A DNA stretch of 61,393 nt, the filler included, from Globobulimina sp. (Eukaryota), in the NCBI GenBank assembly GCA_003354225.1. It is 17 parts of 17 records of this genome, joined end to end, with 100 filler letters (N's around TTAATTAATTAA, not from the genome) between each part and the next. Parts side by side here need not be neighbours in the genome. Positions count along the whole stretch, not along the records: positions 32,566 to 36,082 come from PIVH01002603.1; 16 more parts are not named here. The stretch is one strand, 5' to 3'. Shown here in pieces: positions 2,304 through 35,898 of the stretch; within the stretch, counting starts at the first letter, position 1; each line of letters begins with the position of its first letter. The position numbers and the translations under genes were made by a program. Below the pieces are notes generated by a model. It made no database searches. It was not told the origin of the DNA and saw nothing but the letters and a program-made list of their open reading frames with translations.

Positions 2304-3519
2304 TCATTGCTTAATTGTCAAATAATCATAACCCCACTTACTATCAGCTTTTATATTCCATTTTTTATCATTAAATCTTTGTTTCACTGACTCATTCAAA
2401 ATATCACTTAACCAGGTTTTATCACTTCCATATCCTATCCTTGCTTTAATAATATATTTAATGGATGATTTGTATGATTCAATCGACGATAAAAATGATA
2501 ATAAACTAAATCTATATTCTGTATATCCATCTGTTGTATGAATAATCTTACCTCCGAAACCAATAGCCCAACCTGTTTGGTCATCTGTAAAAAACACGCC
2601 TTCGTATGCATTATTTGGTGGAGGACTTTGTGGGATCCAGTTCTCACCACCGTCGATTGAGTATTCGATTGCAACTTCGATAATGCTGTTGCTGTCCCAC
2701 GTGATTTCTGTAATGCTTCCCGTAACAAGCTGCTCATCGCCATTGGGGCTTGTCAGGCTGATCGTTCCGAAACTTTCGATGGCAACGCCAAAGTCCTTGC
2801 CAGCCGACATCGAAGTATAGTTGTTTCCCGGAGGCACGTCTGTTTGTCCATCCTCATTTGCGCCCCAGCCGGTAATGGAACCGTCCGTCTTGAGAGCAAG
2901 GCAGAAGTATTCACCAACTGCGATACCTGAGTTCTCAGAATCGTCCGGTGCATTGGTGACCTGGTTTTTACTGTCATCTCCCCAAACAGCCAGTGAACCG
3001 TCTTCCTTCAAAGCAATGCTGGTATACCCACCGGCTGATATTGCACTAAAGACGCCTTCTTCAGGAGCATCACCGGTAGCGCCGAAATAATCAAATCCCC
3101 ATGCTGCCACGCTGCCATCGGCTCTTAACGCGACAGAATGATAATCACCGGCTGCAACTGCGACAAAGTCGGTACCCTGTGGGTCCGGGTCTGCTGTATT
3201 TACGAATCCCCATGTTACGACCGAACCATTTTCCCGAAGGGCAACACCATGGAAATCGCCGGCATCAACGGCAGTGAAATCCTCGCCATCGGGAACATCC
3301 AGACGACCAGAATTGCCATTACCTACAGCTATCAATACGCCCTCTGCAGTGAGTCCAACAGAGAAGAGACTTCCTGCGGCAATCTGAACATAAAATTCGT
3401 CAGTCGGAAGGTCCTGCTGTCCGGCAGTGTTCAAACCGAACCCTTCGAAGGTTCCGTCTAATCGCAAAGCCATCCCGTGATTAAAGCCAGACGACACGCT
3501 GTCAAAATCGTCGCCTTCC
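2304..3519 (-). CDS. Bacterial-type RCC1/BLIP-II repeat protein fragment, apparently chimeric at its C-terminus
   Basis: Repeats of the form AV.AG..H.VALR.DGSV..WG, then SPNGDEQL..GS..EITW and IEYSIDGGENW. GC-richer and intronless from 2640 to 3519. Followed by a YCF48/BNR-like piece (FFTDDQTGWAIGFGGKIIHTTDG) and an unrelated AT-rich tail. Confidence 0.7.
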
Positions 3520-3619
3520 NNNNNNNNNNNNNNNNNNNNNNNNNNNNNNNNNNNNNNNNNNNNTTAATTAATTAANNNNNNNNNNNNNNNNNNNNNNNNN
3601 NNNNNNNNNNNNNNNNNNN
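3520..3619. other. Artificial contig linker (44N-TTAATTAATTAA-44N); 16 copies in the window
   Basis: Identical 100-bp spacers start at 3520, 7139, 10758, 14377, 17995, 21613, 25231, 28849, 32466, 36083, 39700, 43316, 46932, 50548, 54164 and 57779. They carry stops in all six frames, and contig lengths never increase along the window. Confidence 0.99.
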
Positions 3620-32465: not shown

Positions 32466-32567
32466 NNNNNNNNNNNNNNNNNNNNNNNNNNNNNNNNNNN
32501 NNNNNNNNNTTAATTAATTAANNNNNNNNNNNNNNNNNNNNNNNNNNNNNNNNNNNNNNNNNNNNTT

Positions 32568-32711
32568 TTTATGGATTCACTAAAGGATTCGTGGGATCTG
32601 CCCTTTGGTTATTTGGTTGTTGATTTGAGCCCAGAAACAGATGACTGCATTAGACTTAGAACTAAAATTTTTCCAGACGAGATCACATGCGTATATGTAC
32701 CAAAAAACTAA
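32568..32711 (+). CDS. Polinton packaging ATPase (A32/FtsK-like), C-terminal end only
   Basis: Not in the ORF track. FMDSLKDSWDLPFGYLVVDLSPETDDCIRLRTKIFPDEITCVYVPKN* matches the typical P(Y/F)GYL..DL...T....RLRT.IFP.E tail. Confidence 0.8.
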   Translation, partial: FMDSLKDSWDLPFGYLVVDLSPETDDCIRLRTKIFPDEITCVYVPKN

Positions 32712-32843
32712 TCATTGATGTAGAGAGTGTGAGAGGGAGAGAGAGAGATAAGTTAAGCAAGTATGTGTGTCATATTACATCAGATGTCGTAACCACGAAG
32801 CCATTGTGGCCTGCTCAAACGTGCACTGATAGATTACAATGGA

Positions 32844-32993
32844 TGACGTAATAGTGACACAATAGTTGCACGCTCGGGCAAGCCTGAACATGGTCTCTTG
32901 TATTTTATGCCAATGACACTGCTCGCTGCGGCAAGTTCAGGCATGCCCAAGTTCCATATATATATTCCGGGAACTCAACTTCAGTCATCAGTT
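32844..32993 (+). promoter_or_regulatory. Metazoan-style Pol II promoter: CRE/ATF-like site, two p53-family response elements, CCAAT, TATA, Inr
   Basis: TGACGTAA 32844-51; GGGCAAGCCT-GAACATGGTC 32876-95; CCAAT 32910-14; CGGCAAGTTC-AGGCATGCCC 32929-48; TATATATA 32957-64; TCAGTC 32981-86 and TCAGTT 32988-93. Confidence 0.72.
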
Positions 32994-33035
32994 TAAACAG
33001 AGAGCTGTTTTGGAAAGGGACAATATTATAAAATA

Positions 33036-33449
33036 ATGACATCCAAGAGTGCAGCGAAATATAATGACAAGAATAACAATATGCGCTGTTGGCTGAATAA
33101 ATTCAATGACAAATGGTACGCCCATTTTCAGCAGGAAGTAAAGGAAAAAAAGGATAAAAGAAGAAAGTACATTTACTTAATGGGTCACACCCTTGCTAAA
33201 TTGGAAGGAAAACTGACAGAAACGATTGGTAAACATTGCAGTGAAGGTCAGTGCGAAACTATCGACAAACGTGGCGACTTCGATGTTCAGTTTGGCCCTA
33301 GGCAAGATGGAGGAGGCTATCAGATGAGTGTGGTTTTACTAGAGGAATCAAACAACAATGAACCATGGAGCATCATCGAAATAAATGATTTGGTAGAATT
33401 TATGATAGCTGTTCGCACGTTAAACGTGGAATATTTGAAACATATATAA
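33036..33449 (+). CDS. Polinton accessory protein, unknown function
   Basis: 137-aa ORF downstream of a complete promoter, followed by AATAAA at ~33458. Confidence 0.75.
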   Translation: MTSKSAAKYNDKNNNMRCWLNKFNDKWYAHFQQEVKEKKDKRRKYIYLMGHTLAKLEGKLTETIGKHCSEGQCETIDKRGDFDVQFGPRQDGGGYQMSVVLLEESNNNEPWSIIEINDLVEFMIAVRTLNVEYLKHI

Positions 33450-33525
33450 AAAAGGCTAATAAAATTGATTGCCATTGTTTGTTTTGGTTACTGTCATGTA
33501 TGTATAAATAAAATAAAATTCCGAA

Positions 33526-33864
33526 ATGTCGAAACGATTAAAACAAAACATTGTATTACTTAGGGCATTACGAAGAGCTACCCCTAAGCAAGCCAAAATA
33601 CTGCTTAGCAAGACAAATAGCAGAGAACTTGTACTTTGTTTGTGCGAGATTGCAGATAACATTTTGGCTGGTACAGTTAAACTGACACCAAAACAGAAAA
33701 GAACGTTGTCAAATCACAAAAAAACCCTACGTGTGTTGGCCAATAAAAAAGTAAAAATTTCGGTGAAACGAAAGTTGTTAAATAATCAAAAAGGTGGTTT
33801 TTTCCCAGCAGTCCTTGCACCAGCACTAAGCGTTGCTGCAGCACTCTTAGGGCAATTTTTGTGA
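33526..33864 (+). CDS. Polinton/adintovirus small basic virion protein with adenain-type cleavage site and amphipathic tail (cupiennin-like)
   Basis: LCEIADNIL.G.V.L...K..L..HKK.LR.LA....KRKLL.NQKGGFFPAVLAP pattern characteristic of Maverick small ORFs. TATAAATA at 33503-10. Confidence 0.8.
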   Translation: MSKRLKQNIVLLRALRRATPKQAKILLSKTNSRELVLCLCEIADNILAGTVKLTPKQKRTLSNHKKTLRVLANKKVKISVKRKLLNNQKGGFFPAVLAPALSVAAALLGQFL

Positions 33865-33867
33865 ACA

Positions 33868-34674
33868 ATGGTGGATAAAACTTATCGTAAAATGGCTTTA
33901 GTGCCACAACAGTTGTTAGAAGGGCTGGCTGGTCAGCAACATTTGAATCCTGGTCTTTCACAGTTGCCGCGCCTAGACAATAGTATGCAGGAACTGCTTA
34001 GACAAAAGAACTTGCCCCCTGACCTTAAACACGCTGAATACAGCCAATTGATGCACCATTACAAAACTATGAAAGAGCAACAAATGCGCCCACAAGAACA
34101 GTTTATGCAACCAAATCAGATGATATATCAAGAACCAGTACCGTCAACTGCCATTGGTAGTCAAAATTTGCTTGCACTCCAGCCTACTATGTCTTACACT
34201 GAGCAATACATGCCAGAGATAAATCATGATCAAATCATTGGAAATATGCCAAAAAATTACAAAAACAAAGCGCGTCTGTTGCTTTCCCATCTGGATCGGA
34301 TAAGCAATTTGACATGGGATCAAAAGGGACAATTGATAATCGATGGGCAAACTATTCCCAACACAAACATTGTTGACTTGGTACATGACTACACAAAAGG
34401 CGCCCGACGTGGTGCTCCACCTGAAGGATGGCATACATTTGGCCGTATATTGAGGCAGACAAATGTACCACAAGAAGCAATTGGTAATAAGAAAAGATTC
34501 AACCAAGTAAACAGAACACCAACACCACAGTTGGCAGTAATAGATGATAGCAGCGAAACAGAACTTGGACCAAGCACGAGCAAGAGATCCCCCAGAAAAA
34601 GTAAAAGAACAAAAAAACCAGTTGAAAAATTAACCATGGGCCATGGTTGGCGCCCTTTCAACCAAAAGATATAA
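33868..34674 (+). CDS. Conserved Polinton/adintovirus protein that normally precedes the integrase
   Basis: KMALVP...LD..M..LL....L....K...Y.Q, KARLLL..L....TWD.KGQLIIDG..IP.TNIVDLV.D, P.GW..F...L...NVP..AIGN..R. Confidence 0.82.
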   Translation: MVDKTYRKMALVPQQLLEGLAGQQHLNPGLSQLPRLDNSMQELLRQKNLPPDLKHAEYSQLMHHYKTMKEQQMRPQEQFMQPNQMIYQEPVPSTAIGSQNLLALQPTMSYTEQYMPEINHDQIIGNMPKNYKNKARLLLSHLDRISNLTWDQKGQLIIDGQTIPNTNIVDLVHDYTKGARRGAPPEGWHTFGRILRQTNVPQEAIGNKKRFNQVNRTPTPQLAVIDDSSETELGPSTSKRSPRKSKRTKKPVEKLTMGHGWRPFNQKI

Positions 34675-34734
34675 ACATAAATAAATATGCGTTTATTGTT
34701 ATTCATTTTTCTGTTATCAATTCATTAATAAACA

Positions 34735-34791
34735 ATGGAAAATTTACTCAAAAAATTGTACTACAGCCCTGAAATTACAGGTACATATTAA
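34735..34791 (+). pseudogene. Polinton retroviral-like integrase, first 18 codons only
   Basis: MENLLKKLYYSPEITGTY* matches the L.K.YY.P...G(S/T)(Y/F) integrase N-terminus and sits in the expected syntenic position. Confidence 0.65.
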
Positions 34792-34801
34792 ATAACCTTA
34801 A

Positions 34802-34833
34802 AAACATGCTCGGACATGAATCATATGACGTCA
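34802..34833. promoter_or_regulatory. p53-family response element + CRE module, copy 1
   Basis: AAACATGCTC-GGACATGAAT-CATA-TGACGTCA; imperfect direct repeat of 35251-35282. Confidence 0.7.
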
Positions 34834-34862
34834 CAGTAAGATTTATTATTGACTGTAAAACA

Positions 34863-35201
34863 TTACATATCGGAATGAAAGTAATCAAAAAGTGGCTTCA
34901 GTATTGTATAGGCTTTTCTGGCATCGTCTTTATTATTTTGGAACACTTTTGCTGAAAGTATGGCACCTTCTAGTGTGGTTTCTTTAAGTGTTTGTTCTCT
35001 TGTCCATAATGGGCTATAACCCCAACCCTTTGCAATCTTGCGAAAAAAGCACTTATCACAAGACGCCATTTTGTTCCACACACATTCATTGAATTGTGCA
35101 TTGAAATCTTTACAATGCATAAATGGTCTATTCCTATTTTCCGCTTCACGCCCTCTGCAAAATAACCGTCGACACAATGACTTTCCATGCATTGGAGCCA
35201 T
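34863..35201 (-). CDS. Small Cys-rich Polinton accessory protein, unknown function
   Basis: 112-aa ORF with a minus-strand TATAAAAG (35238-35231) and the p53RE/CRE module directly upstream. Confidence 0.65.
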   Translation of the reverse strand: MAPMHGKSLCRRLFCRGREAENRNRPFMHCKDFNAQFNECVWNKMASCDKCFFRKIAKGWGYSPLWTREQTLKETTLEGAILSAKVFQNNKDDARKAYTILKPLFDYFHSDM

Positions 35202-35230
35202 TTTGGTATGTGGACACGGGCAACTGGTCC

Positions 35231-35303
35231 CTTTTATATTATGTTACACAAAACATGTCCAGGCATGTATCATATGACGTCACTAAATTTTCGAATATAA
35301 ATA
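35231..35303. promoter_or_regulatory. Bidirectional promoter: TATA(-) / p53RE / CRE / TATA(+)
   Basis: TATAAAAG on minus 35238-31; AAACATGTCC-AGGCATGTAT 35251-70; TGACGTCA 35275-82; TATAAATA on plus 35296-303. Confidence 0.72.
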
Positions 35304-35328
35304 AAAATCGCAAGGGTGAATTAGTTTA

Positions 35329-35898
35329 ATGTTTCAAACAAAAGTATGTAAGTGTATGTATAAAATGGAATTATGTAATATTGTGATATGTGGGACGTTC
35401 GGTTGCCCCATTGACCTGAAAAGAGTTACACCATCGGACATAATCAGTGTCGAGAAAAAACAACGGTTTCCAGGCTTAATTGTACGTATTCACGATCCAA
35501 AGACAACAATTTTAACTTTTGGCAATGGCAAAATAGTATGCAATGGAATTAAGAATGTTGAAACAGCAAGAAAAGCTACACAATTGTTAGCTCAAAAACT
35601 GAATTTATTAGGGAACGCGATTAACATTGAAAAAACACTGGATAGCTTGGCAGTTGTTAATATGGTGGCGTCATGTACATTAGACTTTAAGATTAATTCC
35701 GAGCAATTGGCAATGGCCTATCATAGAGAGGCAGTGCTTGAGAAAGAATTATTTCCAGGACTTTGTTTTAAATTAGATGGTGCCACTTTTCTGATTTTTC
35801 ATTCTGGAAAAGTGATAGTTACAGGATTAAAAACATTTGAGTCGATTGAACGTATTTGGACTTGTATGTTTAAAATTTTATATAAGTTTAAAAAATAA
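35329..35898 (+). CDS. Element-encoded divergent TATA-box-binding protein
   Basis: Both TBP repeats are present: NIV...RFPGLIVRIHDPKTTILTFGNGKIVCNG and NMVASC...ELFPGLCF...FLIFHSGKVIVTG. Intronless. AATAAA overlaps the stop codon. Confidence 0.93.
   Translation: MFQTKVCKCMYKMELCNIVICGTFGCPIDLKRVTPSDIISVEKKQRFPGLIVRIHDPKTTILTFGNGKIVCNGIKNVETARKATQLLAQKLNLLGNAINIEKTLDSLAVVNMVASCTLDFKINSEQLAMAYHREAVLEKELFPGLCFKLDGATFLIFHSGKVIVTGLKTFESIERIWTCMFKILYKFKK

Follow-up and report, generated by a model that had tools for sequence, protein, structure and literature searches.

Why would a single 3.5 kb contig from a Globobulimina sp. assembly (GCA_003354225.1) carry four p53-type motifs, and which factor could read them? 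The contig is part of a 61,393-base stretch of DNA (the window), which consists of 17 separate contigs of 3515–3519 bp each, ordered by length and joined through N44-TTAATTAATTAA-N44 linkers. All four motifs are located on the tenth contig (32566–36082), and the remaining contigs are not its genomic neighbours. Its gene order identifies the tenth contig as part of a Maverick/Polinton (adintovirus-like) element. We consider it reasonably probable that the four 20-mers are cis-regulatory activator sites in compact RNA polymerase II-type promoters of this double-stranded DNA (dsDNA) element.

Detection of the four p53-type 20-mers

A p53-family response element was defined as two RRRCWWGYYY decamers with a spacer of 0–13 bp and few mismatches, and the sequences of all four sites have this form. 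The window was scanned for two such decamers with zero spacer, both CWWG cores intact, and at most two mismatches. The scan returned four 20-mers at the coordinates given by the original prediction, with one, one, two, and one mismatches, as that prediction had stated.

32876–32895: site 1, p53-consensus 20-mer with one mismatch, in the left arm of an inverted repeat shared with site 2
32929–32948: site 2, p53-consensus 20-mer with one mismatch, in the right arm of the inverted repeat, ending 8 bp before a TATA run
34802–34821: site 3, p53-consensus 20-mer with two mismatches, inside copy a of a 34-nt direct repeat
35251–35270: site 4, p53-consensus 20-mer with one mismatch, inside copy b of the same direct repeat

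The eight CWWG cores, which had been described as intact, comprise six CATG and two CAAG. The purine/pyrimidine (R/Y) flank positions fit the consensus at 43 of 48 positions (binomial 6.8e-9), and the mismatches are confined to three half-sites out of eight: they affect position 8 in one, position 9 in another, and both positions in the third. The sites had also been called intergenic, and all four do fall within the 24% of the contig that supported genes leave free; three unsupported short open reading frames (ORFs) of 45–68 aa overlap sites 2, 3, and 4.

The test proposed for the motif was enrichment over background, and this was found in both comparisons. Under the same scan rule, the contig gave four matches vs. 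none in the other 16 contigs (~56 kb). Dinucleotide-preserving shuffles of the contig (n = 5000) gave a mean of 0.023 matches against the four observed; at least one match was obtained in 113 shuffles, two matches in one, and three or more in none. Because any consensus can be picked after a sequence has been seen, a look-elsewhere control was run with 1728 palindromic tandem-decamer patterns of degeneracy equal to the doubled RRRCWWGYYY. Only four of these patterns reached four or more matches. Three were A/T-only patterns with TWWA cores, in a contig that is itself AT-rich, and the fourth was RRRCWWGYYY itself. The sequence-level pattern, a non-random match to the p53 consensus in putative promoter regions, is well supported.

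Proposed promoter modules and repeat pairs

The sites are accompanied by TATA boxes and by elements resembling the cAMP response element (CRE), as follows.

32844–32851: CRE/ATF-like octamer TGACGTAA, 24 bp upstream of site 1
32957–32966, plus strand: TATATATATA run, the likely TATA box of a three-gene block
34801–34834: copy a of the 34-nt direct repeat, with site 3 and the E-box/CRE ATCATATGACGTCAC, no canonical TATA alongside
35231–35238, minus strand: TATAAAAG, 30 bp upstream of the ATG of a Cys-rich ORF
35250–35283: copy b of the 34-nt direct repeat, with site 4 and an identical E-box/CRE, at the centre of a predicted divergent promoter
35296–35303, plus strand: TATAAATA, the likely TATA box of a TBP-like gene

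The original prediction placed two of the sites within about 8–25 bp of a TATA box, and this spacing was confirmed. Site 2 ends 8 bp before TATATATA at 32957, and site 4 ends 25 bp before TATAAATA at 35296 while starting 12 bp past the minus-strand TATAAAAG at 35238–35231. A second TATAAATA was located at 33503, ahead of a 112-aa gene. Sites of CRE/ATF type were identified as the palindrome TGACGTCA at 34826 and 35275 and as the variant TGACGTAA at 32844; each of the three TGACGT loci in the contig is found no more than 24 bp from a p53-type site.

These boxes form three modules. Module A (32844–32966) contains the CRE-like TGACGTAA, site 1, site 2, and the TATA run, with the ATG of the three-gene block 70 bp further on. 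Module B (35231–35303, 73 bp) lies between the Cys-rich ORF and the TBP-like gene and is composed of the minus-strand TATA box, site 4, the E-box/CRE CATATGACGTCA, and the plus-strand TATA box. Module C (34801–34834) is the other copy of the 34-mer; it starts 10 bp past the stop codon of an integrase stub, next to the point of integrase truncation, and overlaps the probable poly(A) region of the Cys-rich ORF on the minus strand.

p53 binds two abutting palindromic decamers as a dimer of dimers. In the arrangement that we propose, a factor of this dimer-of-dimers type would bind the two abutting decamers on one helix face. Its partners would be a basic leucine zipper (bZIP) protein on the CRE and TBP on the TATA box, where the TBP could be that of the host or the element's own. 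Module A would then drive the three-gene block, and module B would serve as a divergent promoter for the Cys-rich ORF and the TBP-like gene.

Both pairs of sites belong to repeats. Sites 1 and 2 are held by an inverted repeat (I3) with arms at 32873–32892 and 32932–32951 that are 85% complementary, matching at 17 of 20 positions; within these arms, the two sites differ at one flank position and at two core W positions. Sites 3 and 4 are held by the direct repeat (D1), the copies of which share 85% identity and start 449 bp apart. Each copy of this 34-mer consists of the p53-type 20-mer followed by ATCATATGACGTCAC, an E-box fused to a perfect CRE palindrome, and the E-box/CRE CATATGACGTCA is perfectly conserved between the two copies. 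The five positions at which copies a and b differ are all R/Y consensus positions. Four of these differences keep the R/Y class and one removes a mismatch, while the CATG cores and the 14-nt E-box/CRE are free of differences (P = 0.0028 over 34 positions; 0.051 over 20). The observation in the original prediction that the pairs differ in sequence and yet keep the consensus therefore stands, as the differences are confined to R/Y or W positions. As a sign of constraint, the pattern of substitution between the direct-repeat copies is suggestive rather than conclusive. By eye, the two site families follow one consensus but have just 10 of 20 bases in common.

A further repeat (D3, 74% identity) was noted in the contig. 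A TGTATGTATAAA-type stretch recurs at 33501–33527 and 35353–35379, in each case shortly before an ATG, that of the 112-aa gene and an internal one of the TBP gene, respectively. It may be a second promoter motif or an initiator motif.

Gene content and relatives of the element

The genes of the contig were compared with protein, structure, and metagenome collections and with four related metagenome loci, L001 to L004.

32566–32711, plus strand: final 47–48 codons of an upstream ORF truncated by the contig end, from the ORF list
33036–33449, plus strand: 137-aa gene, first of the three-gene block, with 28% identity (E 3e-14) to a 120-aa ORF of L001
33526–33864, plus strand: 112-aa gene with a hydrophobic C-end, with 54% identity (E 1e-40) to a 110-aa ORF of L001
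33868–34674, plus strand: 268-aa gene, with three database homologs at 41–44% identity and four metagenome loci
34735–34791, plus strand: integrase stub of 18 codons and a stop, syntenic to the L001 rve integrase
34863–35201, minus strand: 112-aa Cys-rich orphan ORF, from the ORF list, flanked by both copies of the 34-nt repeat
35329–35898, plus strand: divergent TATA-binding-protein gene (Pfam TBP 6.6e-39, two stretches)

The gene order 137/120 aa, 112/110 aa, 268 aa, and integrase start is common to the contig and L001, and parts of it are present in L002–L004. The 137-aa gene had tblastn matches in L001, L003, and L004, and the 268-aa gene is ~40% identical to its L001 counterpart. In L001, an rve integrase (8.1e-11) follows directly after the block, and an adenovirus-type protease (Peptidase_C5, 1.9e-6) is located upstream. 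The adenovirus-type cysteine protease is present in L001, L003, and L004 and absent from the 3.5 kb of our contig. The contig was placed with the Maverick/Polinton (adintovirus-like) elements because its block is syntenic with relatives that carry adenain and an rve integrase. Maverick/Polinton elements and adintoviruses are midsize linear dsDNA viruses of eukaryotes (PMC8502044). It differs from known members of these groups in being only 3.5 kb long, with no PolB, capsid, or complete integrase seen and with the integrase cut after 13 residues. No protein-primed PolB, double or single jelly-roll capsid protein, or packaging ATPase lies within the contig, and searches with the relatives' proteins revealed none in the other 16 contigs. 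Among IMG/VR viral contigs, no relative was identified by the TBP-like protein, by the 34-nt repeat pattern, or by alignments of the 268-aa or 112-aa protein.

In the left half, no Pfam or PHROG match was obtained for the upstream ORF, which may resemble the C-terminal part of a Polinton packaging ATPase. In the Atlas, the clusters closest to the 112-aa protein come from Preplasmiviricota viruses and Nematoda, and a PDB profile search with this protein returned just chance-level matches to the Rad50 coiled coil (E 0.2). An AlphaFold2 (AF2) model of the 268-aa protein built from seven sequences had a mean predicted local distance difference test score (pLDDT) of 64.5 with a confident domain at residues 120–215. 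A PDB profile search with this protein found nothing, and Foldseek gave no match at E ≤ 0.001. VIA-align returned only generic helical-hairpin matches on residues 13–81 (Z ≤ 6.9), and the confident domain, barely covered by these comparisons, had no convincing fold match. An Rfam scan of the contig gave no RNA family at E ≤ 0.1.

In the right half, the TBP-like gene lies directly behind a TATA box. Residues 14–189 of its product align with the whole TBP cores of PDB chains at 1e-25, so that both TBP repeats are covered, while its best database identity is only 37%. Because the homology begins at residue 14, beside an internal ATG, translation may start at the ATG at 35365. Four Phe positions (RF.., ..TF.., LFPG, LIF.), which we take to be the residues with which TBP kinks DNA, appear conserved in the alignment. 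The Cys-rich ORF fell into no Pfam or PHROG family and had one weak match among 1.84 billion representatives (E 4.6e-5, to a 36-residue stretch of a 1715-aa protein) and an unusable single-sequence AF2 model (pLDDT 47). The 34-nt copies bracket exactly this one gene, an arrangement that is cassette-like or could represent a promoter duplication accompanying gene gain. Neither the Cys-rich ORF nor the TBP gene is present in L001–L004, so comparison with these relatives cannot assign the right half to the same element, as the original prediction had done from the motifs. A TBP-like gene does appear among the genes of adintovirus-like viruses in the available portion of one study (PMC8502044, Figure 5 legend).

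The two halves meet near the integrase stub. Nine of its first 13 residues are identical to the start of the L001 integrase, and the likeness stops after base 34774. Assembled pieces of one public run, probably the source data, were compared with the contig, and the assembly graph was found to branch exactly at 34774. One piece (34745–35013, no differences) corresponds to the cut form in the contig. The other branch consists of 235 letters of different sequence, and its first ten codons in the frame of the stub match the next L001 integrase residues at four of ten positions by eye. With two branches at this position, both the cut and the read-on form of the integrase are present in the sample. 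An intron at the break was rejected, as the sequence after 34774 lacks an initial GT and the alternative branch lacks the next bases of the contig. SNP-rich pieces (34275–34443, 35472–35550, and 35751–35820) and divergent loose ends at 35310 and 35341 indicate at least two related element variants in one sample. Three sequencing runs of one sample were listed, with no RNA run among the entries. Pieces of 31 letters from runs X2 and X3 matched, at high depth, a single part of the contig, the GA-rich simple repeat at 32720–32752; this is probably a common microsatellite and no evidence of the element in those runs.

Possible readers, host, and biological meaning

We favour the reading of the 20-mers as activator sites in compact promoters, and several observations weigh against it. 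The four sites form two repeat pairs and therefore represent about two independent events rather than four, such that simple duplication accounts for part of the count. Of the five differences between sites 3 and 4, four are transitions, a type of change that is also favoured by ordinary mutational bias. Site 3 lacks a canonical TATA box, and its location, with the stop codon of the stub on one side and the 3′ end of a minus-strand ORF on the other, is unusual for a promoter. Base 34774 is an assembly branch point, and modules A and B/C may not adjoin in every genome. Lastly, the p53-type motif is absent from all four related loci, leaving no phylogenetic footprint.

The CRE is likewise absent from all four relatives, and we propose that both absences reflect lineage-specific exchange of factor sites. 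The orthologous promoter holds two CCAATCAG boxes in L001 (2735–2790) and one in L003 (1872–1930). The presence of other host-type boxes at the same promoter in these two loci fits such lineage-specific turnover. The L003 promoter also contains CCATGGCAACCATG, which we presume to resemble an RFX X-box; the 90-bp spacer of L004 contains neither CCAATCAG nor CCATGGCAACCATG.

Within the activator-site reading, the protein that binds would depend on the host. A p53-family reader is possible only if the true host is holozoan; otherwise, another host factor or a factor encoded by the element would be required. The 16 other contigs are eukaryotic DNA, AT-rich and dense in genes, in which ORFs are long and introns seem few and short. 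They encode, by eye, coatomer beta, an E2 enzyme, a mitochondrial carrier, a divergent G-alpha, adenylosuccinate synthetase, a phosphatidylinositol kinase (PI-kinase), and an apyrase; one ORF among them (2304–3563, minus strand) appears bacterial in type, with RCC1/BNR-like repeats. The PI-kinase contig was the sole other contig that could be placed, with best matches of 62% identity to the Foraminifera Nonionella stella and Bolivina argentea, and the coatomer fragment gave no usable taxon against the Atlas. The codon usage of the element (r = 0.78) and its dinucleotide signature (91) lie inside the ranges of the other contigs (0.28–0.91 and 24–108, respectively). These values weakly fit the same host and cannot separate that host from any AT-rich genome. 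Overall, a holozoan host for the element appears plausible, at slightly less than an even chance.

Could a host protein of the p53/p63/p73 family read the sites and tie expression of the element to DNA damage, stress, or germline p53/p63 activity? The sites show the full two-decamer, zero-spacer consensus with all cores intact, the pattern was specific among the 1728 controls, and the copies vary only at degenerate positions. The nearest clusters of the 112-aa protein, as described above, include Nematoda as well as viruses. In the available portion of PMC8502044, adintoviruses are described as animal-tropic, and related viruses are noted in Capsaspora and Monosiga datasets; p53 homologs from both of these organisms are listed in the available portion of PMC6981761. 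The latter text reports p53 homologs only in Holozoa and none outside, which stands against this possibility given the foraminifer-like PI-kinase contig and the composition values that fit, if weakly, the same non-holozoan host. The mismatched half-sites and the lack of the motif in the relatives count against it too. Binding of the sites by a p53-family protein is possible but doubtful.

A second explanation holds that the sites are non-binding by-products of local duplication. Sites 1 and 2 would stem from an inverted, palindrome-rich copy and sites 3 and 4 from the direct 34-mer copy; the E-box/CRE would be the functional part, and the likeness to p53 sites would be coincidental. Both site pairs are indeed repeats, and the strictly invariant part of the 34-mer is its CRE half rather than its p53-like half. 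If only two events are counted, the probability of at least two matches from the shuffle mean is ~3e-4, before correction for the many motifs that could be tried. Set against this, the R/Y flanks still fit at 21–22 of 24 positions when one site per pair is considered (p 1.4e-4 to 1.8e-5). Moreover, the two families agree in consensus while sharing only half of their bases, no other pattern outside the A/T-only class reached four matches, and the substitutions spared the cores. On balance we regard this explanation as unlikely.

It is improbable that the repeats serve the element in recombination or replication instead of transcription: the direct repeats flank exactly one ORF in cassette-like fashion, the structural branch point adjoins copy a, and the relatives lack the genes found right of the break, but the break lies 27 bp outside the repeat rather than within it, no rearrangement is associated with sites 1 and 2, and the TATA and CRE context points to transcription. 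Compared by eye, readings as LSF/CP2 (CNRG-N6-CNRG), RFX X-box, NFI, or E-box sites do not fit all four sites.

The activator-site reading can also be set beside known systems. Early promoters of adenoviruses carry ATF/CRE sites beside their TATA boxes. The promoters described here resemble them in having TGACGT 13–110 bp upstream of the TATA boxes, and adenoviruses are dsDNA viruses of the same realm; the difference is that CRE, E-box, and p53-type 20-mer are joined here into a single 34-nt unit. Sites for p53 are also known from mobile elements, among them LTR10/MER61 and L1. Like such sites, those in our contig have abutting decamers, intact CWWG cores, purine/pyrimidine flanks, several copies in regulatory regions, and variation only at degenerate positions. 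Precedents in the available portions of published work are the p53 response elements carried by the human long terminal repeat (LTR) LTR5Hs and by Alu (PMC9430305, PMC3032802, and PMC3308033). Unlike these human cases, the carrier here is a Maverick/adintovirus-like DNA element and not a retroelement, the dataset is foraminifer-like, where a p53-family protein is unreported, and the sites are coupled to CRE and TATA boxes in what would be very compact promoters.

In the literature searched, which was judged partly by title, we found no paper linking Mavericks, Polintons, or adintoviruses to p53 response elements and no description of transcription control in this virus group. One adintovirus paper mentions p53 with regard to an E4orf6-like protein only, which is unrelated to these sites, and the search for Foraminifera and Polintons yielded only unrelated papers.

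At its most specific, the activator-site reading would have an integrating Maverick/adintovirus-like virus with its own TBP wire its promoters, through a p53-type element, a CRE, and a TATA box, to the p53/p63 pathway of its host, so that DNA damage or germline p53 switches the element on. We hold this scenario to be unlikely. If true, p53-wired promoters would be a eukaryotic counterpart of prophage SOS induction and the first p53 elements in this class of DNA elements. In a bolder variant, with a foraminifer host that lacks p53, a non-p53 or virus-encoded factor would have converged on p53-type DNA recognition.

If a p53-family protein does read the sites, the known connection of p53 with mobile elements, which has been documented to date in primate retroelements, would extend to virus-like DNA elements and would cover elements of invertebrates or of unicellular relatives of animals. 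It would also hint that stress or the germline setting determines when such elements are expressed. In a host without p53, the sites would define the target of a new factor with p53-like geometry. Either way, the locus offers a compact, testable promoter, with three recognisable boxes in the 73 bp between two TATA boxes.

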